Part shown: positions 46,204 to 64,000 of the stretch, piece by piece
Layout: each line of letters opens with the position of its first letter
How positions within the stretch are numbered: position 1 is the first letter of the stretch
Assembly: GCA_017513085.1 (NCBI GenBank)
Contig: JAFWDK010000019.1
Location: 224,146-288,145, forward strand
Origin: Clostridiales bacterium
Lineage (GTDB): Bacteria > Bacillota > Clostridia > Saccharofermentanales > Saccharofermentanaceae
Reading direction: 5' to 3'
Length of the DNA stretch: 64,000 bases
Made by a program: the position numbers and the translations under genes
Notes under the pieces: generated by a model
What the model was told of the DNA's origin: nothing
What the model saw: only the letters and a program-made list of their open reading frames with translations
The model's database searches: none

Positions 46204-46923
46204 TTAGTTCTTTTCCCTCTGCCGCATGATGAAGCACGCTTTGACGGCGTCGGCGAAATCTTCCTCCGTGACTCCCTGGGTCCACATCTGCGGGAGCACC
46301 TGATCCTTATAGACAGCAAGCGCCTCCTTCGAAAACTCTTCGAAGATCACGTACGTTCTGGCGTAATCGAAAACCGCCGGAGCAAGCCTGGCATTTATCC
46401 AGTCGATGATCGTGAATTCCGTGTCTTCACTGAGGTGCGACAATCCACGCGGCACCATGACATTCAGGAAATGCATGTCGAGGTGGCATATGCGGCTCGG
46501 CATTTTCGCGCAGAGACGTTCAATGATCGGAAGTACGATCCCCTGATTCTCTTCAGTCAATCCCATCCCGGCAGTTACTGCCAGTGGCGGTATATCAACA
46601 CCCGTAGGATCCACTTCATGTATCTTGGCAAAAGCACCCGCCAGCATCTTAAAGCTCAGCGGGTCCTGGGCGAGCGCGTACGGCTCCAGGGTCGTGCCGT
46701 CGATCAAGTCCATCTTGAGAATGTGATCGTCATCCGTCCCATAGTATCGGACCGGAGTTAAGCCCGCTTCATTCAGTGCTTTTTGCTGACGCATCTCAAA
46801 GCCGATCCACTCAGAAGGATAAGAAGACCGATAGATCTTGTACGCATATCCCTGATAACTGACTACCTCAGCCTGCGCGCCTTTACCGATCAGAATTTGT
46901 GTACCATCGAAATTCATCTTCAC
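46204..46923 (-). CDS. Aminoglycoside phosphotransferase/kinase-like protein
   Basis: IGKGAQAEV, AYKIY, CHLDMHFLN, IIDW, DYART. Confidence 0.8.
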   Translation of the reverse strand: MKMNFDGTQILIGKGAQAEVVSYQGYAYKIYRSSYPSEWIGFEMRQQKALNEAGLTPVRYYGTDDDHILKMDLIDGTTLEPYALAQDPLSFKMLAGAFAKIHEVDPTGVDIPPLAVTAGMGLTEENQGIVLPIIERLCAKMPSRICHLDMHFLNVMVPRGLSHLSEDTEFTIIDWINARLAPAVFDYARTYVIFEEFSKEALAVYKDQVLPQMWTQGVTEEDFADAVKACFIMRQREKN

Positions 46924-52238: not shown

Positions 52239-54155
52239 TCAAATCTCACCACGTTCGATGCCATACTTATTACAGATCGTCGTAAACTCTTCGCTCTGTC
52301 CGAAGAACGCCATAACGCTGTCCTTCGTCTGGCGGCCTGCATTGATCTCGCCAACCCAGTAAGCAACTTCACTTGCTTCCGGATCACGACCCATAAACGT
52401 CGTGTAGAGTCTTGTTACATACTCGTCGTCCTTCAGCTTGAAGCCGACAAACTCGGCACTCGTGAAGAAGTTCTTCGCAGCGGAGCAGCCTGTCTGTTCA
52501 AGGTTAGTCAGAGCTAATGACCAGTACTTCAGACCTCCATCCTCAGGCTCTCTTCTGAGGCACTCGGTATAAAGACGTGTTGCGAACTTGATCGCATTCT
52601 TAGAAGCGAACTCCGCTTTCGCATTCGGCGCGCCGGACTTAACTCCGTAAGTTGCGCAGACATTGCACCACTCGGTCGAGTCAATGAAGCCCATGATGAC
52701 GGTTTCTTTCGTCAGTTTTCCGCTCTTAAGTCCATCGACCCAGAACTTCTTTCCGGCTGCTTCAGACTCACGATCAAAGAATGTAAGATACAGTGTCTCC
52801 ACGAAGTCATCTTCATTTAATCCGCGGTTCAGGAATTCCGGTGCTTCGATCAGGAAGAAGTGAGCGCAGTCACCACCTGTACGATTACCACTTTCGATCT
52901 CTTTGACCCAGAAGGCTTTTCCTTCCGGTTCGGATTCACGATCCAACGCAACAGTATAAAGGCGCTCAACGAAATCCTCAAAAGAAGGCTCTTCCGGCTC
53001 CGGCTCTGGTTCCGGCTCTGGTTCTGGTTCCGGTTCTGGTTCCGGTTCTGGCTCTGGTTCCGGTTCTGGCTCTGGTTCCGGTTTCTGGGACTCATCATAG
53101 AGGATATTGACTACTCGATCGGCTCGTAAAAAAAGCTGATGTTCGCCTTCACAGGAAACATATTCTCCCTCGTAATTCAATCCGTACTTATTTATCATCT
53201 GGGAGAGAAATTTGCACGAAGTAAGATCCAGTTCTGAAAGATCATTATCACTGCAATTCAGATGTTCCAAGATATCACTGTTACTCACATTCAGCTTGCT
53301 TATTTTGTTATGCTCACAAGAAACAAGCTCAATTGCAGGATTCTTACTCAGATCCAACTCTGACAATCCACAATGCGCTACATAAAGTTGACCAAGTTCT
53401 GAATTCTTACTCACGTCTAAAGAAGAGAGTTCGCAACCTTCCACTTTCAGATTATACAGATCAAGATTTTTACTGGTATCCAGTGAAGAAATATTCGAAT
53501 ATTTGCAGTTGAAATACTTCAGTTTCGGTAGCAAAGAAAGATCAACATTCTCAAAAGCTGTACTGGAGATATCGAGGGATTGTAAAGACGGAAGAGACTT
53601 CAGATCTAGTTCTTTTAAATCCGAATTATTCGAACAGTTAAGCATCGTCAGTTTCGAATCCGAAGCAAACTTGATACTTGTCAGCTTACAAGAAGTGCAT
53701 TCGAGATAATCTAATTCAGGCAAATAACTTACATCCAAAGCCTCTAGTAGATTGCCGGAACATACTATTTGAGTCAATTTCGAATTCTTTTGAAGATCAA
53801 GATTCTTAAGCGCGTTTCCAAAACACCAAAGTGTATTCAGATTGGTAAAATACTCAATTCCCGTAATGTCATGTATGTTATAATTACTGCAATCCATCTT
53901 TACGACAGAATCGATTTCGGCCTCACTAAAGCGGCCATCATGATTCGTGTCTATAGTATCGAGGTAATATTGGAACGCCGGATCCGGAAAGTGTTCGTCA
54001 TCAATAGGGATGTAGACTTTCTTCAACGGCACGGTCTCACCAGCTTTATCTGAAGATCCGCTAAAATCCGAAACTGCGCTCACTCCGCCGATCGGAGTGG
54101 ATACAATAATTATGGATAGCAACAAAGATAGATTCTTCTTCAATTTTATATTCAT
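52239..54155 (-). CDS. Secreted/surface LRR protein with (PE)15 linker and C-terminal DUF4214-type repeats
   Basis: Signal peptide; FPDPAF, LRRs L.C..N.L..LD; FVERLY..ALDRESEPEG..FW repeats. Confidence 0.85.
   Translation of the reverse strand: MNIKLKKNLSLLLSIIIVSTPIGGVSAVSDFSGSSDKAGETVPLKKVYIPIDDEHFPDPAFQYYLDTIDTNHDGRFSEAEIDSVVKMDCSNYNIHDITGIEYFTNLNTLWCFGNALKNLDLQKNSKLTQIVCSGNLLEALDVSYLPELDYLECTSCKLTSIKFASDSKLTMLNCSNNSDLKELDLKSLPSLQSLDISSTAFENVDLSLLPKLKYFNCKYSNISSLDTSKNLDLYNLKVEGCELSSLDVSKNSELGQLYVAHCGLSELDLSKNPAIELVSCEHNKISKLNVSNSDILEHLNCSDNDLSELDLTSCKFLSQMINKYGLNYEGEYVSCEGEHQLFLRADRVVNILYDESQKPEPEPEPEPEPEPEPEPEPEPEPEPEPEPEEPSFEDFVERLYTVALDRESEPEGKAFWVKEIESGNRTGGDCAHFFLIEAPEFLNRGLNEDDFVETLYLTFFDRESEAAGKKFWVDGLKSGKLTKETVIMGFIDSTEWCNVCATYGVKSGAPNAKAEFASKNAIKFATRLYTECLRREPEDGGLKYWSLALTNLEQTGCSAAKNFFTSAEFVGFKLKDDEYVTRLYTTFMGRDPEASEVAYWVGEINAGRQTKDSVMAFFGQSEEFTTICNKYGIERGEI
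52992..53081 (-). repeat. Hexamer repeat encoding (Pro-Glu)15
   Basis: CCRGAR repeated 15 times. Confidence 0.9.
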
Positions 54156-54303
54156 TCATTTCTCCTTTCAATCGATGCTCCTGTTGAATCAATCAACTAA
54201 ATACAGTTGTATTATAGCAGAGTCGTAAGATTTATCCAGGACACCATGGTATCGAGGATCAGTTTCATATTGCCTATAATAGATTTATTCATTGAGAGTC
54301 TGT

Positions 54304-55146
54304 TCATTCAACCTCGAAAGATGGCTTCCAAGCCGCAAAATGTACGAGCTGTTCTTCTGTTCGGTGATAGTATCTCTGATCTTTATCGAGCTTTGCGATC
54401 TTCGTCATCTCTTCATCTGTAAGCGTAAAGTCTAAGATATTTAGATTCTCCTTTATGTGATCGACATTCTTGCTTCCCGGAATAACAACAAAGCCCATCT
54501 GGGTATGCCAGCGAAGGATTATCTGAGCGGGGCTCTTGTCGTATTTCTTTCCAAGCTCGGCGAAAACCGGTTCATTGATAAGCGACTTGTCTCCGTGACC
54601 CAACGGATACCAGCTCATGAACTTGATATCGTACTTATCGAGTGTTTTTCGGAGCTCTTTTTGTGTGAAGTAGGGATGTGCTTCTACCTGGATAAACTGA
54701 GGTACTATCTCCCACTTTGTCTGAAGTTCATCAATGTATTTACCTTCGAAGTTCGAGATTCCGATGCTCTTTGCTTTGCCTTCTTTATATGCCTTTTCGA
54801 GCTGACGGTAACCTGCAAGCCAGTTACCTGCGGGCTGATGGATATAGAGTAGATCGACATAGTCTACGCCAAGTCTTTCGAGTGTCTCATCGACCGCATT
54901 GGGATTCTCGTATTCACTCGGCCAGAGTTTGGTGGAGAGAAAGACATCTTCGCGGTTGAGGCCGCTTGCCTTGATACCTCTTCCACAGGCTCTCTCGTTG
55001 ACATAAGCGTTAGCAGTATCCACAAGTGAGTATCCCATCTTAAGAGCTTCCCTGACGCTCTTCTCAGCGTCAGAAGGCGCCAGCATAAAAGTTCCGATTC
55101 CTACTGAAGGGCATTTGATCCCGTTGTTAAGTGTTACATATTCCAT
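54304..55146 (-). CDS. Aldo/keto reductase (2,5-DKG reductase-like)
   Basis: LNNG, DTANAY, STKLW, DLLYIH, IGISNF, AQIILRW, IPGS. Confidence 0.92.
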   Translation of the reverse strand: MEYVTLNNGIKCPSVGIGTFMLAPSDAEKSVREALKMGYSLVDTANAYVNERACGRGIKASGLNREDVFLSTKLWPSEYENPNAVDETLERLGVDYVDLLYIHQPAGNWLAGYRQLEKAYKEGKAKSIGISNFEGKYIDELQTKWEIVPQFIQVEAHPYFTQKELRKTLDKYDIKFMSWYPLGHGDKSLINEPVFAELGKKYDKSPAQIILRWHTQMGFVVIPGSKNVDHIKENLNILDFTLTDEEMTKIAKLDKDQRYYHRTEEQLVHFAAWKPSFEVE

Positions 55147-55158
55147 TTTGATTCCTCC

Positions 55159-55680
55159 TTAGATCAGTCCATTCGCTGCAAGCCACTTCTTAACAGCATC
55201 TTTTGATTCAGCTGCTCTGCTTCCGGTGATCGAAAGGCCCTTTTTAACATCAGCGCCTTTTGCGTACTTCTTAACATCGCGTTCGGAAGATCCCATTCCA
55301 CTGCCTTCGTTGGTGCAGAACGGAAGGATCGTCTTACCGGTGAAATCGTATCTCTCGAGGAAGGTTGCAACAGCCATGGGAATCGTTCCCCAGTAATTGG
55401 GATAACCAAGAACAACCATGTCGTATCCGTCGATGCTGTCGATGTAGGATGTGAGCTCAGGGCGGGCATTTTCCTTAAGGTCTTTTTTCGCTTCGTCGAT
55501 GCAGGTCATATAGACAGGTGAATATGGATCTTTCATCTCGATCTTGAAAGTATCCGCACCGGTCAGTTCCTTCATAATATCTGCAACGATCTCGGTGTTT
55601 CCGACCTTCACGTATCTCATCGCTCCGCCGAAGTAGTTCTCATCCGCTCTCGAAAAGAATGCTATCAATGTCTTTGCCAT
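55159..55680 (-). CDS. Flavodoxin
   Basis: AFFSRADENY, GNT, GYPNYWGT, PFCTNEGSG. Confidence 0.9.
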   Translation of the reverse strand: MAKTLIAFFSRADENYFGGAMRYVKVGNTEIVADIMKELTGADTFKIEMKDPYSPVYMTCIDEAKKDLKENARPELTSYIDSIDGYDMVVLGYPNYWGTIPMAVATFLERYDFTGKTILPFCTNEGSGMGSSERDVKKYAKGADVKKGLSITGSRAAESKDAVKKWLAANGLI

Positions 55681-55794
55681 ATATTCTGCCTCCGTTATTG
55701 TTTTTCTATGTTTACATTCTCGCACCAAACCGATAAAATATCCAATAGAAAGACTAGATATCCGATTTAAAAATTAAATAGCGCAGGAGCCGTC

Positions 55795-56682
55795 ATGAAC
55801 ACAAAACAGATAGATTACTGCATAGAACTTGCCAGGACACAGAACTTCAGCAGAGGCGCTGAAAATATGTTTGTAAGCCAGCCCACTTTCTCATACCAGA
55901 TCAGGCTATTGGAAGAAGAGGTTGGATTTTCGATCTTCGAGAGGAACGGAAAAGGTGCATCGCTTACGCCTGCCGGACAGCAGTTCGTTTCCTTTCTGAC
56001 CGGTATGCGCGAAGAGATGAAGCGTGCAATCGAACAGGGGCAGAACTTCAGTGCCAAATATGCTGACAACATTTCCATCGTAATGTCTGTCCGCCAAGCT
56101 TTGTATTTTCTTCCTGAAGCAATACGCATATTCGAAAAGGAGCAGCCAGGTGTGCAGATTACACCTATGTTCAATTACGGTCATGGTCTAGAGTTCTTCC
56201 TGAAAAACGAAGCGGACATCCTCTTCGCGCTCACAGAGCAGACAAAGCATATTCCGGGAATAAACGTACACAAGTTGTTTGATTCGCGTATCTATTTGAT
56301 AGCAGACAAAAACGATCCGCTTGCGGCTAAGAATACGATTTCGGAAGAAGATATCTACGGCAGGACACTTATGGTCGGAGGAGGTTCCCCGGAAGCATTA
56401 AGATCTGTCCAGCAACGTCTTATTTCTTCAGGTAAGATTAAATATTTTAACAGTCCGGATCACGACAGCACTCTCACGAATGTGGCTGCGAGGAAAGGAA
56501 TATGCCTCGCGCCCGGATTTCTTAACGATCACAGTGGGCAGTTTGCGTGGATACCGTTTGATTGTGAGGAATGTTTTCACCTCGTTCTTTGCACGCACAA
56601 AACAGATAACAGAAAGAGCTTGAATATCTTCATAAAGACTCTTCAAAAGCTTTACACCGATGCAGTGGCATTCCCACTTTAG
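55795..56682 (+). CDS. LysR family regulator, divergent from flavodoxin-AKR
   Basis: NFSRGAENMFVSQPTFSYQIRLLEEEVG, LTPAG. Confidence 0.93.
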   Translation: MNTKQIDYCIELARTQNFSRGAENMFVSQPTFSYQIRLLEEEVGFSIFERNGKGASLTPAGQQFVSFLTGMREEMKRAIEQGQNFSAKYADNISIVMSVRQALYFLPEAIRIFEKEQPGVQITPMFNYGHGLEFFLKNEADILFALTEQTKHIPGINVHKLFDSRIYLIADKNDPLAAKNTISEEDIYGRTLMVGGGSPEALRSVQQRLISSGKIKYFNSPDHDSTLTNVAARKGICLAPGFLNDHSGQFAWIPFDCEECFHLVLCTHKTDNRKSLNIFIKTLQKLYTDAVAFPL

Positions 56683-56698
56683 TGTCTGTACGTCTCCT

Positions 56699-56968
56699 TC
56701 ACATGTTATGAATGTTCATGTTTATGACCGTCATATCGTCGTTCTCTTTCTGTATCTTCTCTTGTTCCTCTTTAGTTAGTTCTTTCTTTGAATCTTTTGT
56801 TCCACGAAGAATAGTCCACAAGATCACCTGCAGAAGAGCATTGCTTCCAAGAGCAATGTGCATGAGCCTAGTATTATCTATGATTATCGAGACGATAAGT
56901 GCCGCAAGTGCAGCCACCGCTATAAGCAGTCCGATTAAATACAGTGTTTTCCTAGTTGAGGCTTTCAT
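56699..56968 (-). CDS. Small two-TM membrane protein (89 aa)
   Basis: Start MKASTRK after GGAG; two hydrophobic helices. Confidence 0.6.
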   Translation of the reverse strand: MKASTRKTLYLIGLLIAVAALAALIVSIIIDNTRLMHIALGSNALLQVILWTILRGTKDSKKELTKEEQEKIQKENDDMTVINMNIHNM

Positions 56969-56984
56969 AGTGTTTGTTCTCCAC

Positions 56985-57149
56985 TCAATGTGTAAGAATA
57001 TAAGTGAATGCGCCGAATCTCTCACCAAGACCAAAGCTTGCATAGGCGGTCGCCATAAAGAGAAGTGCATAAGCTGCATATCTTACTTTTCTATTGTTTC
57101 TGATCAGGTCTTCTGTTCTTTTCATCGTTTTTCTAAGCTGCATTGTCAT
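56985..57149 (-). CDS. Unannotated 54-aa basic/hydrophobic small protein
   Basis: MTMQLRKTMKRTEDLIRNNRKVRYAAYALLFMATAYASFGLGERFGAFTYILTH; RBS AGGAAAGAGGT; frame conserved in a paralogous fragment at 62085-62179. Confidence 0.7.
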   Translation of the reverse strand: MTMQLRKTMKRTEDLIRNNRKVRYAAYALLFMATAYASFGLGERFGAFTYILTH

Positions 57150-57299
57150 TGTGTAATACCTCTTTCCTGATGCATTTTCTCTGCTTTATGACTCTATTTT
57201 GCCGATGAAAACTAAAGACATCGTCAAACGGAGGTAAAGAATTGATAAAGAAAACCCGGACATATTGAAGTTTTGGTTAGGGAGATTAACATCTGATTT

Positions 57300-58085
57300 T
57301 TATACTGCATCCGTCCATTTCTGATAGGCTTCATCAATATGCACCTTGAATGCATCATAATCTTCCCAACGGAACGGAAAACCATACAGCTCAGAATTTA
57401 GTTTTTCCTTCGCAAACTTTCCAACCTCGTTCTCGTAGGAATCCTTATAGTATGCGATGACAAAAGCACGGACCTTCTTTTTGACCGAATCCTCCATAAA
57501 GTATCCTTCATACGCTTCCAGATATGCGGTCGGAAATTCTTCTCTTCGCTTGATTTTAGAGACCAGATCTTTGGCTTCAAGCGCATCGTCTTCATCAAAA
57601 TCTTTCGTCGGCTGAAAATAATTATTCTCTATGATCCACATAAGCAGATACGCAAAATCAGCATACGAATACTGCCATATGACAGACTCATCTTCCTTCG
57701 AAAGATCTTCCGCCCTCTTGCCTGTCTGCTTACAATACAACTCGCGTGCAATATCGTAAGTGTAGCCTTTGTTTTTGTATAAAGAAACAGCGAACATGGG
57801 TGAAAATACCGGGCGCGTTCTCTCTATTTCGAGACGTTTTTTGACGCCCTTGTTCTCTCTGATAAGACTGAATGCAATTCCTTCAAGAATTAAAGCAAAA
57901 AACAAAATGCCGAAAAACACGCCTATCCCGCCCTTGATCAGTCCGTACACAGCTCCTGCCACGATTCCAATCACAAAGAACTGGATAATGACTACAGCGA
58001 CATGATTTCTCTTAATCTGCGATTCAAGCCTACGGATCTCAGCGGAAACCGGCTTCTCTTCATTAGTTGTTTGCTTCTTTTTCAT
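57300..58085 (-). CDS. Hypothetical protein with two N-terminal TM helices
   Basis: 261-aa ORF overlapping the upstream gene. Confidence 0.65.
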   Translation of the reverse strand: MKKKQTTNEEKPVSAEIRRLESQIKRNHVAVVIIQFFVIGIVAGAVYGLIKGGIGVFFGILFFALILEGIAFSLIRENKGVKKRLEIERTRPVFSPMFAVSLYKNKGYTYDIARELYCKQTGKRAEDLSKEDESVIWQYSYADFAYLLMWIIENNYFQPTKDFDEDDALEAKDLVSKIKRREEFPTAYLEAYEGYFMEDSVKKKVRAFVIAYYKDSYENEVGKFAKEKLNSELYGFPFRWEDYDAFKVHIDEAYQKWTDAV

Positions 58086-58815
58086 ATAAATCAGATGACA
58101 AATCGAAGATCATTTCTGCTAAATGCATTCCGTCAACACCACCGGTCTTAAGACCTTCAAGGCAATAATGACAATAGCAGACAACTGAATATGTCTTATA
58201 GTTCCTGCAGTATTCTTTCATGATCGCTTCCTGTTCTTCAGCACTATGCGGAATAAACAGCCCCTCTGCATCCTCCACATAATGTTTCGGAGCCAGTTTG
58301 GGGTTGCGGGGCGGCTGCGGACGATAAAGAGATACACCGCAGAAATCAGTATCCTGATGATTCTTACCTGCTTCAACATATGAAATATTCATTTTTGCCA
58401 GCAGGCTTCTCACGGCTTTCTGTTCGCTGCTCCGGTCGCGGGAACGCCAGCAGTCCTGAACCGTTACTGTCAATCCCTCATGATCGGGCAGCTGTAAGCC
58501 GGCATCAGAATCAAGAAGCTCCCATAACGACTGAACTTTTACTCCGGGGTGCATCTCTTCAATGATATTGTTACAGTTATGACAGAGAGAATAGATTTCA
58601 TCTCCGGGCTTAAAATCAGCCGAATCCGGCAGTGAAGCCCATCTTTCCCTGAAACTACCCTCCGGCATTCTTTCCTCAAAATCTTTGATCTTATATTTGG
58701 GCACGCAGCAACGCACAACTCTAAGATCGTAATGCTCTTGAACAATGTCACAGATCCTGAAGCTCAGTTCCGAAAACTGTGAAGTAAATACGCAGCTGGC
58801 AATGTAATATCTCAT
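58063..58815 (-). CDS. Cysteine-rich (CCG-like) putative Fe-S protein
   Basis: ASC, RCC, CHNC, QDCWR, FCG, YCHYC. Confidence 0.6.
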   Translation of the reverse strand: MRYYIASCVFTSQFSELSFRICDIVQEHYDLRVVRCCVPKYKIKDFEERMPEGSFRERWASLPDSADFKPGDEIYSLCHNCNNIIEEMHPGVKVQSLWELLDSDAGLQLPDHEGLTVTVQDCWRSRDRSSEQKAVRSLLAKMNISYVEAGKNHQDTDFCGVSLYRPQPPRNPKLAPKHYVEDAEGLFIPHSAEEQEAIMKEYCRNYKTYSVVCYCHYCLEGLKTGGVDGMHLAEMIFDLSSDLYEKEANN

Positions 58816-59044
58816 AGCTTTGTCCCTTCAACGATCTTTATGATGTTCTACTAAAGTGGGCAAACGCGGATTGATTCCGGCATCTCGCTGCTTCCGCTTC
58901 TCAACATGGGCATTCTTATTGAATTCACTGATGTTGATTTCTTTTCGTACTTTTCGCATCCCATCGAAAACAACATGTTCCACTTTCTTCTTAGCCATTT
59001 TGATCCTCCACCACTAACAAAAACGATGATGAAACATACAAATC

Positions 59045-60367
59045 TCACCCAAAGAACACAGGCACCAGGAAAGATGCAAACAGAATAATAACCGCCCCTC
59101 CAAGTCTTGAGGATATCTGGGCGAACGGCATCAGTTTCATTCTTTTGGAAGCCATAAGAACAGCTACATCTCCGGTTCCGCCCATGTTCGCCATACAGAG
59201 TCCGGCGGTAATCGCCGCTTCGATTGGGTAGAATCCGACTAGTCTTCCGATAAGAGCAGATCCGAGAACTGCGCCAAGGACTGTTACAAGTACAAGCACG
59301 ATGTACTGGAGGTTAAATGCATCAATAATCTGTCCCATGTCGGTATAGGCCATGCCGATACCCAGCATCAGCGCAGCTGTCCAGTTCTTCGACACAAAGG
59401 AATACCAGAGAGAAGCATTCTCTTCATACTCTTCTGGGACAAGATTGAAACACTTGGCTAATGCTACGCCGATGATCATCCAGGCATAGGGATGGATATC
59501 TAATCCCAGCTTCTTAACGAGTAAAGCAACTAAGCAGCCAAAAGCATAAAATGATGTAGCGACGATCACGCCTTTGGCATAACTCTCTACACTTCTATCC
59601 TTAGGCTCTTTCTTCTCTTCCTTAAGCGAGGGATCATCCGAACGCATGAGCGATCCATTACCAGTAAGGGACGGACATGCTTCTCCCAGTCTGTTCAAAA
59701 GGCCACCGCAAACAATAGCGAAAGCATTTCCCAGAGCAACTGCAGGAACCAGACGACTGAGAATAGTCTCCGAAGGAATACTCAATGCACTTTCAAATAC
59801 CTTAGCAATCGGAACCGCACCAGCTCCCATGCCGCCTCCCATGATGGGCATACCAATATAAGCAATCGATTCACCGGCACTCATGCCGAAGAGATAACCA
59901 ACTGCGGCAACTCCTGCAAGGGCTACAACAACAGCTCCGACAATGCAAGGCAGATATCTTATAGCTGCACGAATAAGGAGTTTACGGTTCATGCCAAGGA
60001 TTGATCCTGTGATCAAGGCGGCAATATAGAAATCCAGGAACCCTGCTCCCTTCATGAAGGTGGAACAATTCTCCACAATATCTGTCGGAACAAGATGCCA
60101 GTAAACAATCGCTGCACCCACAAAGATACAGACAATGGCACCGCCTCCGAGGAAGGTTTTCACAAATGGTGTGATATTACCTGTCTGATTGAGAAGTTCA
60201 CCGAACACCATAAGAAACAGGAACGCACCTACCATTCCAGTAGGAAATGCACCCAACACACAGCCGATGATTATGATAAGCGAGATGATAATAAACCACT
60301 TTATTTCAAATCCCGCGATACGGACCTTACGTAAACTAAACTCTTTACTCTTCCTACTCACAAACAT
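59045..60367 (-). CDS. 2-hydroxycarboxylate transporter (citrate/malate, 2-HCT family)
   Basis: FYIAALITGSILGM, PIMGGGMGAG, LTGNGSL, CMANMGGTGDVAVL, ISSRLGG. Confidence 0.92.
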   Translation of the reverse strand: MFVSRKSKEFSLRKVRIAGFEIKWFIIISLIIIIGCVLGAFPTGMVGAFLFLMVFGELLNQTGNITPFVKTFLGGGAIVCIFVGAAIVYWHLVPTDIVENCSTFMKGAGFLDFYIAALITGSILGMNRKLLIRAAIRYLPCIVGAVVVALAGVAAVGYLFGMSAGESIAYIGMPIMGGGMGAGAVPIAKVFESALSIPSETILSRLVPAVALGNAFAIVCGGLLNRLGEACPSLTGNGSLMRSDDPSLKEEKKEPKDRSVESYAKGVIVATSFYAFGCLVALLVKKLGLDIHPYAWMIIGVALAKCFNLVPEEYEENASLWYSFVSKNWTAALMLGIGMAYTDMGQIIDAFNLQYIVLVLVTVLGAVLGSALIGRLVGFYPIEAAITAGLCMANMGGTGDVAVLMASKRMKLMPFAQISSRLGGAVIILFASFLVPVFFG

Positions 60368-60463
60368 TCCCCCAGTCCTGATGTGTGAATAAACGGCCGA
60401 TACCTATTTCCATAATAAGCCATATGGCCGGGATAATCTAGAGGAATACAGAGTTTTCTAAAA

Positions 60464-60503
60464 CAAGTCCCTTCAGCAACCTAAGCATCTGCTGAGGGGA
60501 CTT
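60464..60503. terminator. Hairpin after the AT-rich gene run
   Basis: CAAGTCCCT(T)CAGCA...TGCTGAGGGACTTG. Confidence 0.6.
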
Positions 60504-60575
60504 GAAATAACTTCATTTAGCCATTACAGGAAGTGGAGCTAATGACATTCATAAAGCGTCCGGCAATCTCTTCTG

Positions 60576-61142
60576 CTATCCCAACAAATTGGAATTTGAC
60601 GTTTTGAATAACAATAAAAATTCATCTACATTCTTAACATTAGTTTCTAAAACTGCCTTATATACATCAATACTCTTGTACTGTTCGAAAGAATACAATC
60701 CTCTTGTAATTAGTTCACTTTTAATACTTACAATGATGTCCTTCTGCGTTTGGTTTGTATTGTTTGCGATATTATCGCAATACCTTTCTGCATTGGATAT
60801 AGTTTCTTTATCGAAAAACCATAAGTCAACATTCCACAGTTCTCCTGTAATCATTGTTTCAAATCCATGAAACCAAACCATTTTTCCATCGTCATTCACC
60901 TCTTCTTTTGCTTCATACCATACGGGATGAAATGTATTTATGATGAATGTCGATAAATCATACATCTTATCTAATGACATAGTATCATTTTCAATATCAA
61001 TATCCAAATCATTCCACGCCATCATATCCATTCGATAACTACCAATTATATGTGACTTTCCAATCTCTTCAAGTTTCTTCATCAGACCATATTCATATAA
61101 TATTCGGTCAGCATTTATTTTTCTATCAATATTGCTCAGCAT
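60576..61142 (-). CDS. Putative nucleotidyltransferase-fold protein (AT-rich)
   Basis: IIGSY...NDLDID and a later VDLW fit the GS...DxD...D pattern. Confidence 0.55.
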   Translation of the reverse strand: MLSNIDRKINADRILYEYGLMKKLEEIGKSHIIGSYRMDMMAWNDLDIDIENDTMSLDKMYDLSTFIINTFHPVWYEAKEEVNDDGKMVWFHGFETMITGELWNVDLWFFDKETISNAERYCDNIANNTNQTQKDIIVSIKSELITRGLYSFEQYKSIDVYKAVLETNVKNVDEFLLLFKTSNSNLLG

Positions 61143-61177
61143 TTGTAATTCTCCAAATTCTTAATCATCTCTTCGAC

Positions 61178-61555
61178 CTATTCAAAGTTTTCTAACTGTT
61201 CTACAAAACAGTGATTGTCTAACGATTCGCCCTCGAGCCATTTCGAAACCGTAACATACGTACCATTCTGTAACTTCGTAATGCATTCACCATGACAATT
61301 TTCAACTGCTTCACGTATCTGCATGCCCTGTTTCTTTAAGTGCGCTTGGAACGCAAGTTCTGCCTTATATATCTCGATACGCTCAACTCCTTCATAAAAA
61401 AAATCTGTAGAAAACCCTTCTACCGGCTCATAGATTTGCAGCAAATACTCGTTTCCCACACGATAGGTAAGATTCTCATTGTGTCTCAGTAATTCTATTT
61501 CCGGCACAGTTATATTGTAATGAGCTAACGCTTCTTGTATGTAGTTGCGCTCCAT
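61178..61555 (-). pseudogene. Truncated phosphotransferase (APH/homoserine-kinase type), N-lobe only
   Basis: HNENLTYRV, LLQI, AE, KWLEGESL, then a stop; no HxD or DFD catalytic motifs. Confidence 0.65.
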
Positions 61556-61656
61556 ATTTTGATCCTCCTTCGCTGAAACCAATTCATGTTTATCTAACTG
61601 TTAGACATATTGGAATTTATCTATGCATCAGTTTTGATAACTGTATATGTGCAATA

Positions 61657-61935
61657 CTAGCGACCTTTTCTGAAACGACCGTTTCCATGATATGTATCTA
61701 CGCTACACGTATAAGCCTGTCCACAGTGCTTGCACCTTATTGTGTGTGCAATTAGATCATCAACCCAGTAGCCACTATCATTTTTGACCTTATCCAAATC
61801 ACACGTCTGCGATTCCATCTCAAAGTCACCGGAATCCAGAAGCTTTTGAATGTAGTTCAGGCACTGCATGTATTCTTTATTAGAAGCAAACCATTTAGTT
61901 AATTGAATGTTATCACACACTACACACATTTCCAT
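61657..61935 (-). CDS. Small Cys-rich hypothetical protein
   Basis: CVVC...CKHCG; RBS GAGGAG; TGC-TATAAT -10 at 61988-61996. Confidence 0.65.
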   Translation of the reverse strand: MEMCVVCDNIQLTKWFASNKEYMQCLNYIQKLLDSGDFEMESQTCDLDKVKNDSGYWVDDLIAHTIRCKHCGQAYTCSVDTYHGNGRFRKGR

Positions 61936-62017
61936 TCACTCCTCAACAGCATGTATTCTGATGATTTAATGGACTAGTTACACATGTATTATAGCAGAGG
62001 CATTATTGAAGATACAA

Positions 62018-62052
62018 AACACCTCGGATCATCTGATATGATCCGAGGTGTT
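62018..62052. terminator. Strong hairpin terminator
   Basis: AACACCTCGGATCAT-ctgat-ATGATCCGAGGTGTT, with a T-run on the minus strand. Confidence 0.75.
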
Positions 62053-62084
62053 GGTTCCAGAATTCCTGATATATCATCACTTGA

Positions 62085-62179
62085 TCAATGTGTGATCAAG
62101 AAAACAAATGAGCCGAATCTCTCGCCAATTCCGAAGCACGCATAGGTCGTCGCCATAAAGAGAAGTGCATAAGCTGCAT
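62085..62179 (-). pseudogene. 3' remnant of a paralogue of the 54-aa gene
   Basis: AAYALLFMATTYACFGIGERFGSFVFLITH*; in-frame TAA at 62187-62189 upstream. Confidence 0.65.
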
Positions 62180-62270
62180 GACCAACTTACACTAAGTACA
62201 GTATAGTATAAATTTATTAATAAATATCGTCGGTGGTACTAGAGGCTGTAATATTCATCGATTGTTAACA

Positions 62271-62590
62271 TTACGACACACCTTACGACCAGCAACGCCT
62301 ATATTAAGGCATTTGAACGGTTTTGGTGTCATCCGTCTTTTACGACCAACTCACTGGTGGTACAAAAAGCCTCTTGGAGCTGCGTCCCCCCATCAAACGC
62401 TGATATATCAAGATTTGTCGGAAAAGAGAACGACCTGTGAAGCTTTACGTTTTTCACAGGTCGTTTGTTCAACAATGTAGGATATCTTGTTTTTGCGTAG
62501 CTCGTGCGGGTTGCAAATGCGTCGTTTTACGTTTTTCTTTGTCATAACTTATCGTAGTTACGACAAGTTATGGTCGTAAATTGGTCGTAA
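62271..62590. repeat. Non-coding segment with six TTACGAC/GTCGTAA motifs, paired and inverted at the ends
   Basis: TTACGAC at 62271, 62283, 62340 and 62558; GTCGTAA at 62573 and 62584; internal hairpin AACGACCTGTGAA...TTCACAGGTCGTT. Confidence 0.7.
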
Positions 62591-62769
62591 GTCCTAAAAA
62601 TACCAGAAGTAAGAATCCCGAGATTTCAGGCTTTTTACTTGTCGATGGACTTCATTGTCAGAGAGCCACCACTGACAAGTGCTTTGGGATGGGTATTGGC
62701 ATATTGTACTATAATGGTTCTTGTCACACTAATTTGATTTCACATTATTGAAGATGGGGGAAGCGTTCT

Positions 62770-63372
62770 ATGAGCAACTGGTATGCTGCGGATACTCATT
62801 TTGGTTCGGATTCGAAAGAGGTCATGATCCGGGATAACCGGCCGTTTAGGGACATTCATGAGTATACGGAAGCGCAGGTAAGGATCTGGAATGAACAGGC
62901 ATCTTCGGATGACACTATATATGTCATCGGAGATTTCTGTAACTGCGGTCCCAGGACCGAAAAGAATTTCCGAAGCGGTCTTGCCGTATCCAAGAGGATC
63001 AATGCGCATATCATCCTCATTATCGGAAACAATGAACAGCGAGCCATCGACGAGTGCTTTGACGGGTCTTTTGAAAAGTTCCGGAAATACTGTCTGACTG
63101 ATCCTTCATGCAAGTTCGATGACGTAAAGATGAATGATTATGTGGATATAAAGGGCGAAAAGTTTTTCCTTACGCATAAGCCTACTGATCACGCCAAAGA
63201 CTGTCAGACTCTATTCGGCCACACGCACAGATACGGTGGGCTTTGGAAGTCTTTCGGATTTAATGTCGGCGTGGACTTAAATCACTTCAGGTTATTCAGC
63301 GACGACGACATCATGTTTATGCTCATCCAAAAGAAAAAATACTGGGACGAGGATATGGAGATCAACAACTGA
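62770..63372 (+). CDS. Calcineurin-like metallophosphoesterase
   Basis: ADTHFG, VIGDF, IGNNE, THKP, FGHTH, FNVGVD. Confidence 0.85.
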   Translation: MSNWYAADTHFGSDSKEVMIRDNRPFRDIHEYTEAQVRIWNEQASSDDTIYVIGDFCNCGPRTEKNFRSGLAVSKRINAHIILIIGNNEQRAIDECFDGSFEKFRKYCLTDPSCKFDDVKMNDYVDIKGEKFFLTHKPTDHAKDCQTLFGHTHRYGGLWKSFGFNVGVDLNHFRLFSDDDIMFMLIQKKKYWDEDMEINN

Positions 63373-63625
63373 TCCGATGTCTTGCAAATGTGTTTTAGAT
63401 GATTGTTTTAACTACAAAGTCCGTGTATCTAATCCAAGAATCAAATTGTCTTCAACACAGAACAGTTTCCAAAGTCTTGTACAATTTTCGAGTTTATGCG
63501 GTTCTTGTTGTCTTTTCGTCTTGTTGTAGCCATTAAAATACTTCTTTCTCCGCACGGGTAGCCCCCGTTTCTATGTGTTAGCTACAACAGCGATCTACAC
63601 TTTCAAGAAGAATACTCCGCAACAT

Positions 63626-63680
63626 ATCACATTTTATGAGCCACTTTAAGCTAGTTCATCACATTTTATGAGCCACTTTA
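63626..63680. repeat. Perfect 23-bp direct repeat, 32-bp period
   Basis: ATCACATTTTATGAGCCACTTTA at 63626 and 63658. Confidence 0.85.
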
Positions 63681-63820
63681 TCCATTTATGACCTCACATA
63701 ACATGCTTGCACACCGGAGCACTCATCTGTATCTTATTTGCTTCGTTGTGTGATGCTGGAATATATAGATAAAAGTCAGGGAAACCTTTAAGTTAGGCGA
63801 TTACCTTATAAATTATTCAG

Positions 63821-64000
63821 TCAATACCAGTCATGCTTTTCGCCTCGATCCAGCAAAGTAATCTGCTCCATTTCATCTTCTGTCAGTTCAAACCCAAACA
63901 GATCGAGGTTCTCTTTTATATGATCCGGATTTCCAGATCCCGGTATGACCACAATGCCTCTTTGCAAGTCCCATCTCAGAATGACCTGTGCAGATGATAC
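63821..64000 (-). CDS. C-terminus of an aldo/keto reductase (runs off the window)
   Basis: SAQVILRWDLQRGIVVIPGSGNPDHIKENLDLFGFELTEDEM...KHDWY*. Confidence 0.88.
   Translation of the reverse strand, partial: VSSAQVILRWDLQRGIVVIPGSGNPDHIKENLDLFGFELTEDEMEQITLLDRGEKHDWY

Follow-up and report, generated by a model that had tools for sequence, protein, structure and literature searches.

A 17-nt motif at gene ends in Clostridia as a candidate recombination-site core beside a truncated kinase gene

In a 64,000-nt stretch of DNA from a Clostridiales bacterium of the Saccharofermentanaceae (contig JAFWDK010000019.1; hereafter the window, in whose numbering positions are given), we analyzed a self-contained AT-rich accessory operon of three minus-strand open reading frames (ORFs). 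It consists of an extended -10 promoter, a Cys-rich small protein (ORF1, 61657-61935), a kinase fragment (ORF2, 61178-61555), a minimal nucleotidyltransferase (ORF3, 60576-61142) and a terminator, and its GC content is 0.31-0.40, against 0.42-0.50 in neighbouring genes. Two sites in this operon, A and B, both represent a quasi-palindromic motif of 17 nt, whose sequence is about ATAAATTCCAATTTGTC, with ATAAAYWTGAATTKG as a variant and AATTCCAATTTG as the core. We put at roughly 50% the probability that this motif serves as a recombination or attachment core, that gene modules move at it, and that recombination at a look-alike truncated the kinase; we infer site-specific recombination here from the arrangement of sequences, and not from a demonstrated action of a recombinase. 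The operon, both sites and a 25-nt repeat matching at 20 positions had been described in a prediction made from the letters of this stretch alone (the original prediction), and all of them hold in position and sequence.

According to this reading, phage-type integrases would act in trans on the motif as the core of their recombination or attachment site, and promoterless gene modules would be inserted, exchanged or lost at copies of the motif. An in-frame look-alike in the kinase gene (codons L-D-K-L-E-L) would have recombined with a degenerate site in the spacer behind it. This event, with both partners broken after GAYAA, would have removed the catalytic two-thirds of the kinase. Exchange of modules at motif sites would explain the coincidence of module boundaries and breaks in homology with the motif.

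Site A (TCAAATTCCAATTTGTT; 60583-60599, minus strand, originally drawn at 60582-60602) lies inside the last eight codons of ORF3 and has 6-bp arms, CAAATT and AATTTG, around GG. Site B (ATAAATTCCAATATGTC; 61604-61620, minus strand, originally 61603-61623) follows the ORF1 stop codon by about 36 nt, and is the informative copy because the gene preceding it is unrelated to ORF3. Both were scored with a 17-nt matrix trained on the 3' ends of ORF3 homologues from other genomes only (26 sequences taken in). B (18.5 bits) and A (17.1 bits) are the top two matches in the window, where simulations give an expectation of 0.075-0.125 such hits per 64 kb and of 0.002 per 1425 nt of operon composition; three hits in the 64 kb reach 15 bits, and one of these lies within coding sequence. 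Exact matches to the 10-mer ATTGGAATTT are present in the window at A and B only.

The leader element that we call unit 2 (GTTAGATAAACATGAATTGG; 61579-61598, minus strand) lies just upstream of the ribosome-binding site (RBS) of the kinase. It falls within the repeat mentioned above, formed by 61578-61602 and 61176-61200, which match at 20 of 25 positions and extend to 30 nt at 77% identity (repeat D5). The two repeat copies hold the only exact occurrences of TCTAACTGTT in the window, and a degenerate pattern derived from both finds no other match in the window and none in any shuffle. A 16-nt consensus of unit 2 was set aside: with up to three mismatches it gave 15 hits, all on the ORF3 strand, against 6-18 in shuffled sequence.

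Genomes were searched with aligned ORF3 relatives; 123 of 176 candidates were confirmed, and 80 loci resulted for comparison. L001 is a contig of a Lachnospiraceae metagenome-assembled genome (MAG), L005 belongs to a Eubacterium MAG, and L013 and L014 to a single Agathobacter MAG; over 11.8 kb these last two show 100% identity, which reflects either duplication in the assembly or a genuine one in the genome. In many loci the motif is found where the ORF3 homologue ends, either at its stop codon or immediately behind it. The loci and the window together (857 kb) contain 75 hits of at least 13 bits, compared with 13-23 in each of five mononucleotide shuffles. Dropping the duplicate locus L014 and palindromic double hits left 65 distinct hits, 14 in the zone of ORF3 3' ends and 51 elsewhere, the latter including two further hits at ORF3 ends that fell there owing to ORF extension. 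Thirty of these 51 fall between genes or at an ORF edge, positions that together make up 16.4% of the sequence, and 17 are within -20 to +60 nt of a co-oriented stop codon; since intergenic DNA is AT-rich, part of this enrichment at gene ends follows from base composition.

Arrays of sites also occur away from ORF3 ends. L005 has five co-oriented sites between successive small genes (NUDIX, GNATs, MFS, HAD-ORF3, methyltransferase), and motif-like strings can be read in 9 of its first 11 spacer sequences. Around the 17-nt core we recognize a spacer of about 45 nt, in which the site is followed by AACAGTTAG and then by a second unit, ATAAAYWTGAATTKG. Alignment A6 places this common element between ORF1 and the kinase in the window, between kinase and nucleotidyltransferase in L001, between the genes for a GNAT and a polysaccharide deacetylase in L013, and at the nucleotidyltransferase 3' end in L004, where the sequence agrees with site B and its first flank bases at 25 of 27 positions (manual count). 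In the kinase-ORF3 spacer, in L001 as in the window, the element is degenerate (A6). The exact flank AACAGTTAGA is rare, being found among the 80 loci in L001 and in L013/L014, that is, in one MAG besides L001. The shared site of the original prediction is thus real by the matrix scan and recurs at gene boundaries of other genomes. The gene order around it varies, as had been proposed, with the kinase adjoining ORF3 in one of the 80 loci (L001, where it is intact) and ORF1 present at none.

Comparison of related loci places breaks in homology at the motif. The kinase-nucleotidyltransferase module is 99% identical between the window and L001 while its flanks are unrelated; homology begins inside leader unit 2 (61593) and ends inside site A (60584), and the module ends at motif copies in both genomes. 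Likewise, L005 and L007 have HAD-ORF3 in common and differ on both sides of it, with the breaks at motif copies.

A tyrosine recombinase, whose co-occurrence the original prediction had proposed to look for, does adjoin the site in two of the 80 loci, L007 and L039. Their PF00589 integrases are 67% identical to each other, and in both loci the integrase gene is followed by a conserved hairpin and then by the motif, about 120 nt after the stop codon. Past the motif L007 is colinear with L005, in which an MFS gene replaces the integrase, and L039 differs from both. In L007 and L039 as compared with L005, the site next to the integrase gene therefore marks the limit of similarity to a relative that lacks the element. 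This order, an integrase gene and then the motif at the homology edge, is the pattern of an element end facing an empty site, and from it we infer that the motif is an attachment or recombination core. It resembles the att sites of tyrosine-integrase elements (prophages, integrative and conjugative elements, integrative and mobilizable elements) in that the motif stands about 120 nt beyond the 3' end of the integrase gene, after a terminator, exactly where homology of L007 to the element-free L005 begins, and in that two 67%-identical integrases share the arrangement. Unlike att sites, the motif is repeated between many small genes and bounds modules of one or two genes without an integrase of their own. 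The enzymes are ordinary phage-type integrases that share about 29% identity with known ones from phages and are encoded in the same direction as the array; a tblastn search with the L007 integrase found nothing in the 64-kb window. The serine recombinase of L071/L072 was rejected as a partner, since the junction of its element lies about 74 nt beyond the motif and is unlinked to it. In L039, the region between the motif and the first array gene (1640-1890) holds a promoter-like TTGACA/TGgTAGAAT pair, and a leader of about 200 nt ends in a terminator-like hairpin with a T-run, possibly an attenuator or a riboswitch.

The best-defined rearrangement is the one in ORF2. This gene, 125 aa long from an ATG after AGGAGG, is the dead remnant of a small-molecule kinase of the APH family. 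Its residues 1-113/114 are kinase, and its last 11-12 codons and stop are translated former intergenic spacer; 161 database matches cover only residues 1 to about 114, and do so mostly in proteins of about 310-330 aa. It has no Pfam hit, and as an N-terminal fragment it lacks the full two-lobe architecture of an APH kinase (PF01636), in which the C-lobe holds the catalytic loop and the metal-binding segment. In L001 the kinase is full-length (about 320 aa; PF01636 APH at 3e-18), with amicoumacin kinase as the nearest solved structure. No C-terminal kinase remnant is found anywhere in the 64 kb.

By blastn, L001 1124-1502 corresponds to window 61593-61215 on the kinase side (98.7% identity) and L001 2146-2781 to window 61219-60584 on the nucleotidyltransferase side (99.1%). 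Relative to L001, 648 bp are absent from the window (643 nt of gap and 5 nt of overlap): kinase codons ~115-319 with the stop, and the 30 nt with which the kinase-nucleotidyltransferase spacer begins. The junction GACAA (61215-61219, minus strand) is given by the overlap of the two blastn segments and by alignment A5. On its 5' side (minus strand) lies kinase sequence up to and including GTTAGACAA, and spacer sequence begins at TCACTG; in L001 the spacer at the right deletion end reads TATGATAA and then TCACTG, and both deletion ends lie just after GAYAA (GACAA / GATAA). What follows in the window is the native kinase-nucleotidyltransferase spacer (61143-61214, minus strand; 99% identical to L001 2151-2222), in which the degenerate ~45-nt spacer element is followed by the AAGAATTTGGAG leader and the ORF3 RBS, an order colinear with the ORF1-kinase spacer and with L013. 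The breakpoint found by alignment to the full-length homologue thus lies within 61201-61221, the interval (site C) where the original prediction had placed it. No joining of separate cassettes produced the truncation, which is a 648-bp deletion within a kinase-nucleotidyltransferase module that already existed, and the 25 nt that the original prediction had taken for a shared cassette leader are, at 61176-61200, part of that native spacer. A second APH-family phosphotransferase gene is encoded at 46207-46923 (minus strand; PF01636 2.5e-11), at a position unrelated to that of the truncated kinase.

The left deletion end falls in an unusual place. Within the L001 kinase ORF, the stretch most similar to the leader unit (61598-61579, minus strand) is 1494-1513 (16/20); the next best has eight mismatches, and only 2 of 2000 Markov simulations give an equally good match. 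This look-alike contains the left deletion end and encodes, in frame, the conserved L-D-K-L-E-L. Eleven close relatives reach residue 114: eight continue colinearly (P0283-85, P0287-91), and three, the window kinase, P0286 and P0146, which belong to different sequence lineages, diverge exactly after ESLD(K). In P0127, a 40% relative, an internal deletion starts at the same aspartate. The tail of P0286 opens with DNFQ, four residues whose back-translation resembles the motif, a reading made at the protein level; comparison of the P0286 and P0146 tails with the loci and the window gave nothing informative. The internal pseudo-site of the original prediction thus has a counterpart in the intact kinase, at the deletion end, and a crossover there is plausible; site C itself is no copy of the motif. 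None of the four outcomes that the original prediction had named as contradicting it (a motif no commoner than background, hits away from gene boundaries, a breakpoint outside 61201-61221, a fixed gene order) was found, and its interpretation as a whole is partly supported.

Several results weigh against recombination at the motif. No recombinase or transposase domain, PF00589 included, is present among the 60 window ORFs scanned; a tyrosine integrase stands next to ORF3 or the site in only two of the 80 loci, the window not being one of them, and both integrase genes lie within about 200 nt of a contig end, with one element end visible. The two deletion ends share only GA(C/T)AA, as a recombinase-independent microhomology deletion would leave them. 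Site C has no motif hit of 9 bits or more, so that the deletion partner in the spacer is a poor copy of the motif. The central dinucleotide differs between motif copies (CC, TG, AG, CT). Single-stranded folds of A, B, C and of their equivalents in L001, L004 and L013 are no better than those of shuffles (z -1.5 to +0.8), and hairpins of the attC or REP kind were rejected on this ground. The starting seed of the matrix was picked by eye from the window and the loci, and an apparent clustering of homology breaks at sites (35 of 307, where 1.3 would be expected) was discarded as evidence because it is confounded by the training of the matrix on ORF3 ends. P0286 and P0146 are known as proteins only, and many other kinase fragments in the database break at other positions, although many of these breaks are probably contig ends. 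Homologues of the 'cassette' genes stand elsewhere without the motif (a GNAT in L039, a NUDIX gene in L049), and gene-sized indels adjoin ORF3 in clades without the motif too. In Oscillospiraceae-type loci that lack it we observed clean indels of 471, ~1409 and ~790-1090 nt at or near the stop codon of the ORF3 homologue (L031 6547 vs L049 6548-7018; L031 vs L035; L028 vs L029/L034/L038/L046), and gain and loss of single genes is hence not confined to motif-bearing sites.

The alternative that survives best, which we regard as possible but clearly the less probable account, is that the kinase lost its 648 bp by replication slippage or microhomology deletion between GACAA and GATAA, and that the motif is leader or 3'-end sequence inherited by descent, so that homology ends there. 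For the junction itself, a recombinase-independent microhomology deletion is an equally good explanation: the ends share two perfect nucleotides (four of five), and the product looks like an ordinary deletion pseudogene, with a remnant ORF that runs into the former spacer. The missing recombinase in the window, the kinase fragments that break elsewhere and the indels in motif-free clades fit it as well. So does the leader motif directly before the Shine-Dalgarno (SD) sequence, which is a trait of the ORF3 family: AATTTG precedes the SD in 5 of 386 gene starts (six are listed together with related hexamers), and those listed are all ORF3 homologues. For the same reason we rejected AATTTG as a general ribosome-binding context, it being specific to ORF3 leaders. 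Descent alone, however, does not account for an element of about 27-45 nt that follows unrelated genes (the Cys-rich ORF, GNAT, NUDIX, MFS and a beta-lactamase-fold gene), for a motif kept at ORF3 3' ends with no gene following (site A in the window, L002, L004, L065), or for its constant spacing behind the genes of two related integrases, where homology breaks off. Nor would a plain microhomology deletion be expected to have its left end in a statistically unusual site look-alike, the best one inside the kinase, or to recur after the same codon in three independent lineages of related kinases.

An improbable alternative is that the motif acts in cis on expression, as a palindromic repressor operator or as a 5' or 3' RNA element for translation or stability, with no rearrangement of DNA. 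Its position in stand-alone ORF3 genes, which have an inverted copy behind the extended -10 and ahead of the RBS (L002, L010, L071, L065, L074), is what such a role would look like, and leader and 3' copies are mutually complementary, both being present in seven loci (8 leader and 26 3' copies among 79). Against this, the folds are not more stable than those of shuffles, leader and 3' copies show no consistent covariation, and the motif also occurs inside operons and after integrase genes. A regulatory element would moreover leave the homology breaks and the kinase breakpoint unexplained.

We consider it very unlikely that the operon is a true integron cassette array (IntI with attC sites) or a remnant of the CALIN type. 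There are points of resemblance: in the window and in the L005 array, co-oriented and mostly promoterless ORFs follow one promoter, a short imperfect palindrome at the ORF 3' end often contains the stop codon, and the genes found between sites differ from one genome to another. Site B even holds GTCTAAC-A-GTTAGAT, which fits the RYYYAAC / GTTRRRY consensus of integron sites. Integron secondary (pseudo-)sites can cause aberrant deletions. The fit of site B to the consensus is lost in L013, L001 and site C, however, and the box-like strings of B are not conserved. The site measures 17 nt (about 45 with its flank) against 57-141 nt for attC, lacks R''/L''/L'/R' boxes and forms no stable hairpin. 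No IntI or other tyrosine recombinase is encoded in the window (no PF00589 in its 60 scanned ORFs), and the integrases of L007 and L039 are of phage type and co-oriented with the array. To our knowledge, integrons are essentially absent from Firmicutes, and the host here is a member of the Clostridia. The system is at most an analogue of integrons and not a member of them; the label 'integron-like' of the original prediction stands as an analogy and fails on boxes, fold, IntI and site length.

That sites and repeats are chance similarities in AT-rich DNA, in which 6-bp arms are common and the 10-mer with one mismatch is no commoner than in shuffles (6 in the window vs 9.4), is contradicted by the matrix scores, the shuffles, the degenerate repeat pattern, the spacer alignment, the positions of the hits and the look-alike simulations, and we give it hardly any credence. 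Palindromic repeats of the REP or miniature inverted-repeat transposable element (MITE) kind are likewise short and imperfect and lie between or after co-transcribed genes, but here there are two good copies in 64 kb, the stem is AT-rich and unstable, and there is no RAYT or transposase.

If the motif is indeed a recombination core, a bolder extension, which we hold only tentatively and rate below the recombination reading itself, is that gut and rumen Clostridia have a cassette system of their own, analogous to integrons, with a 17-nt site, phage-type integrases acting in trans, and look-alikes that give rise to recurrent, position-specific truncations. The modules concerned would be promoterless units of one or two genes (GNATs, kinases, nucleotidyltransferases, NUDIX, MFS) placed behind resident promoters. 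A partial parallel is found in the pdif modules of Acinetobacter plasmids, small Xer-dependent gene modules bounded by short sites whose recombinase is encoded elsewhere; unlike there, no XerC/XerD-type 11-6-11 site is evident here, the lineage is another one and the location appears chromosomal. A full-text literature search, at the level of its listings, returned no description of such a site or of such cassette arrays in Clostridia. If the motif works as a recombination site, Lachnospiraceae and Oscillospiraceae could shuffle small accessory genes without integrons or transposons. Many of these genes are of types that modify drugs or metabolites, and the system would then bear on the assembly of resistomes and detoxification repertoires in gut and rumen; it would also explain the frequency of fragmentary genes in such arrays. 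If the motif is only a conserved leader, what we describe is an ordinary pseudogene in a recently transferred two-gene module.

The proteins on either side of the kinase remnant were characterized as well. ORF1 encodes a 92-aa Cys-rich protein of unknown function, with 12 homologues of 52-94 aa (57-96% identity), none of them annotated; it belongs to no Pfam, NCBIfam, PADLOC or PHROGs family. ORF3 encodes a 188-aa minimal nucleotidyltransferase of the Pol-beta fold with 905 homologues, mostly of 179-180 aa, in Clostridia MAGs, the majority of which stop 8-9 codons earlier than the window protein. Invariant columns are G34-S35 and D45, D47 and D49 (G-S, D-x-D-x-D). At the sequence level its only Pfam assignment is a weak DUF7249. 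Its predicted model (pLDDT 90.6) gave 41 PDB matches at E <= 1e-3 in Foldseek, the top ones being Cid1/TUTase, CCA-adding enzymes and CdnE (TM 0.5-0.6). With fold, G-S and acidic D-x-D all present, this model confirms the earlier 'NTase-like' label at the level of the fold. Sequence searches of the PDB returned nothing for ORF2 or ORF3, profile A3 included, and ORF3 has no match among PLSDB plasmids. ORF3 homologues are often found in surroundings of mobile or defence type: L002 (264-5803 and 7806-8426) encodes ParB, a MobA/VirD2 relaxase, a NikA/MobC protein and a Cys-rich VLP protein, and ToxN type III toxin genes are present in L002, L013 (10817-11293) and L064 (4301-4612).

The operon is bounded by two terminators on the minus strand. 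Upstream, a hairpin at 62018-62052 (15-bp stem, z -5.7, then a U-run) closes the preceding transcription unit and insulates the operon; downstream, a hairpin at about 60467-60505 (-23.3 kcal/mol, z -3.4), followed by UUGUUUUAG, ends it. The promoter element of the three genes, the extended -10 TGCTATAAT (61996-61988, minus strand), was read from sequence and lies inside repeat D3, in which the promoter region 61958-61999 is 79% identical over 42 nt to 54181-54222. The latter lies upstream of a large DUF4214/LRR surface-protein gene (52242-54155), and the pair looks like a shared or duplicated promoter segment. No tRNA gene is present in the 64-kb window, the defence and phage libraries gave no meaningful match, and an Rfam scan of 54000-64000 at E up to 1 returned two sub-threshold snoRNA matches only and no known RNA family.

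Other repeats surround the operon. A 104-nt direct repeat (D1; 79% identity) has its first copy at 56985-57088, within a 54-aa ORF (56985-57149, minus strand) whose product resembles a small membrane peptide, and its second at 62085-62188, as a truncated 23-aa version just upstream of the insulating terminator; the copies bracket about 5 kb with a 2-hydroxycarboxylate transporter and the three-gene operon. The D1 peptide has no match in PADLOC or PHROGs. The heptamer TTACGAC occurs in 13 exact copies in the window, where about 5 per 64 kb are expected, and 6 of the 13 are clustered, in both orientations, in 320 nt of non-coding sequence upstream of the operon (62271-62590); paired copies are found in none of the 80 loci. 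The cluster could represent protein-binding repeats such as iterons or arm-type sites. Finally, a 25-nt inverted repeat (I1; 62061-62085 / 62392-62416, 80% complementary, 306 nt between arms) extends over the truncated copy of the small peptide and into the TTACGAC region.

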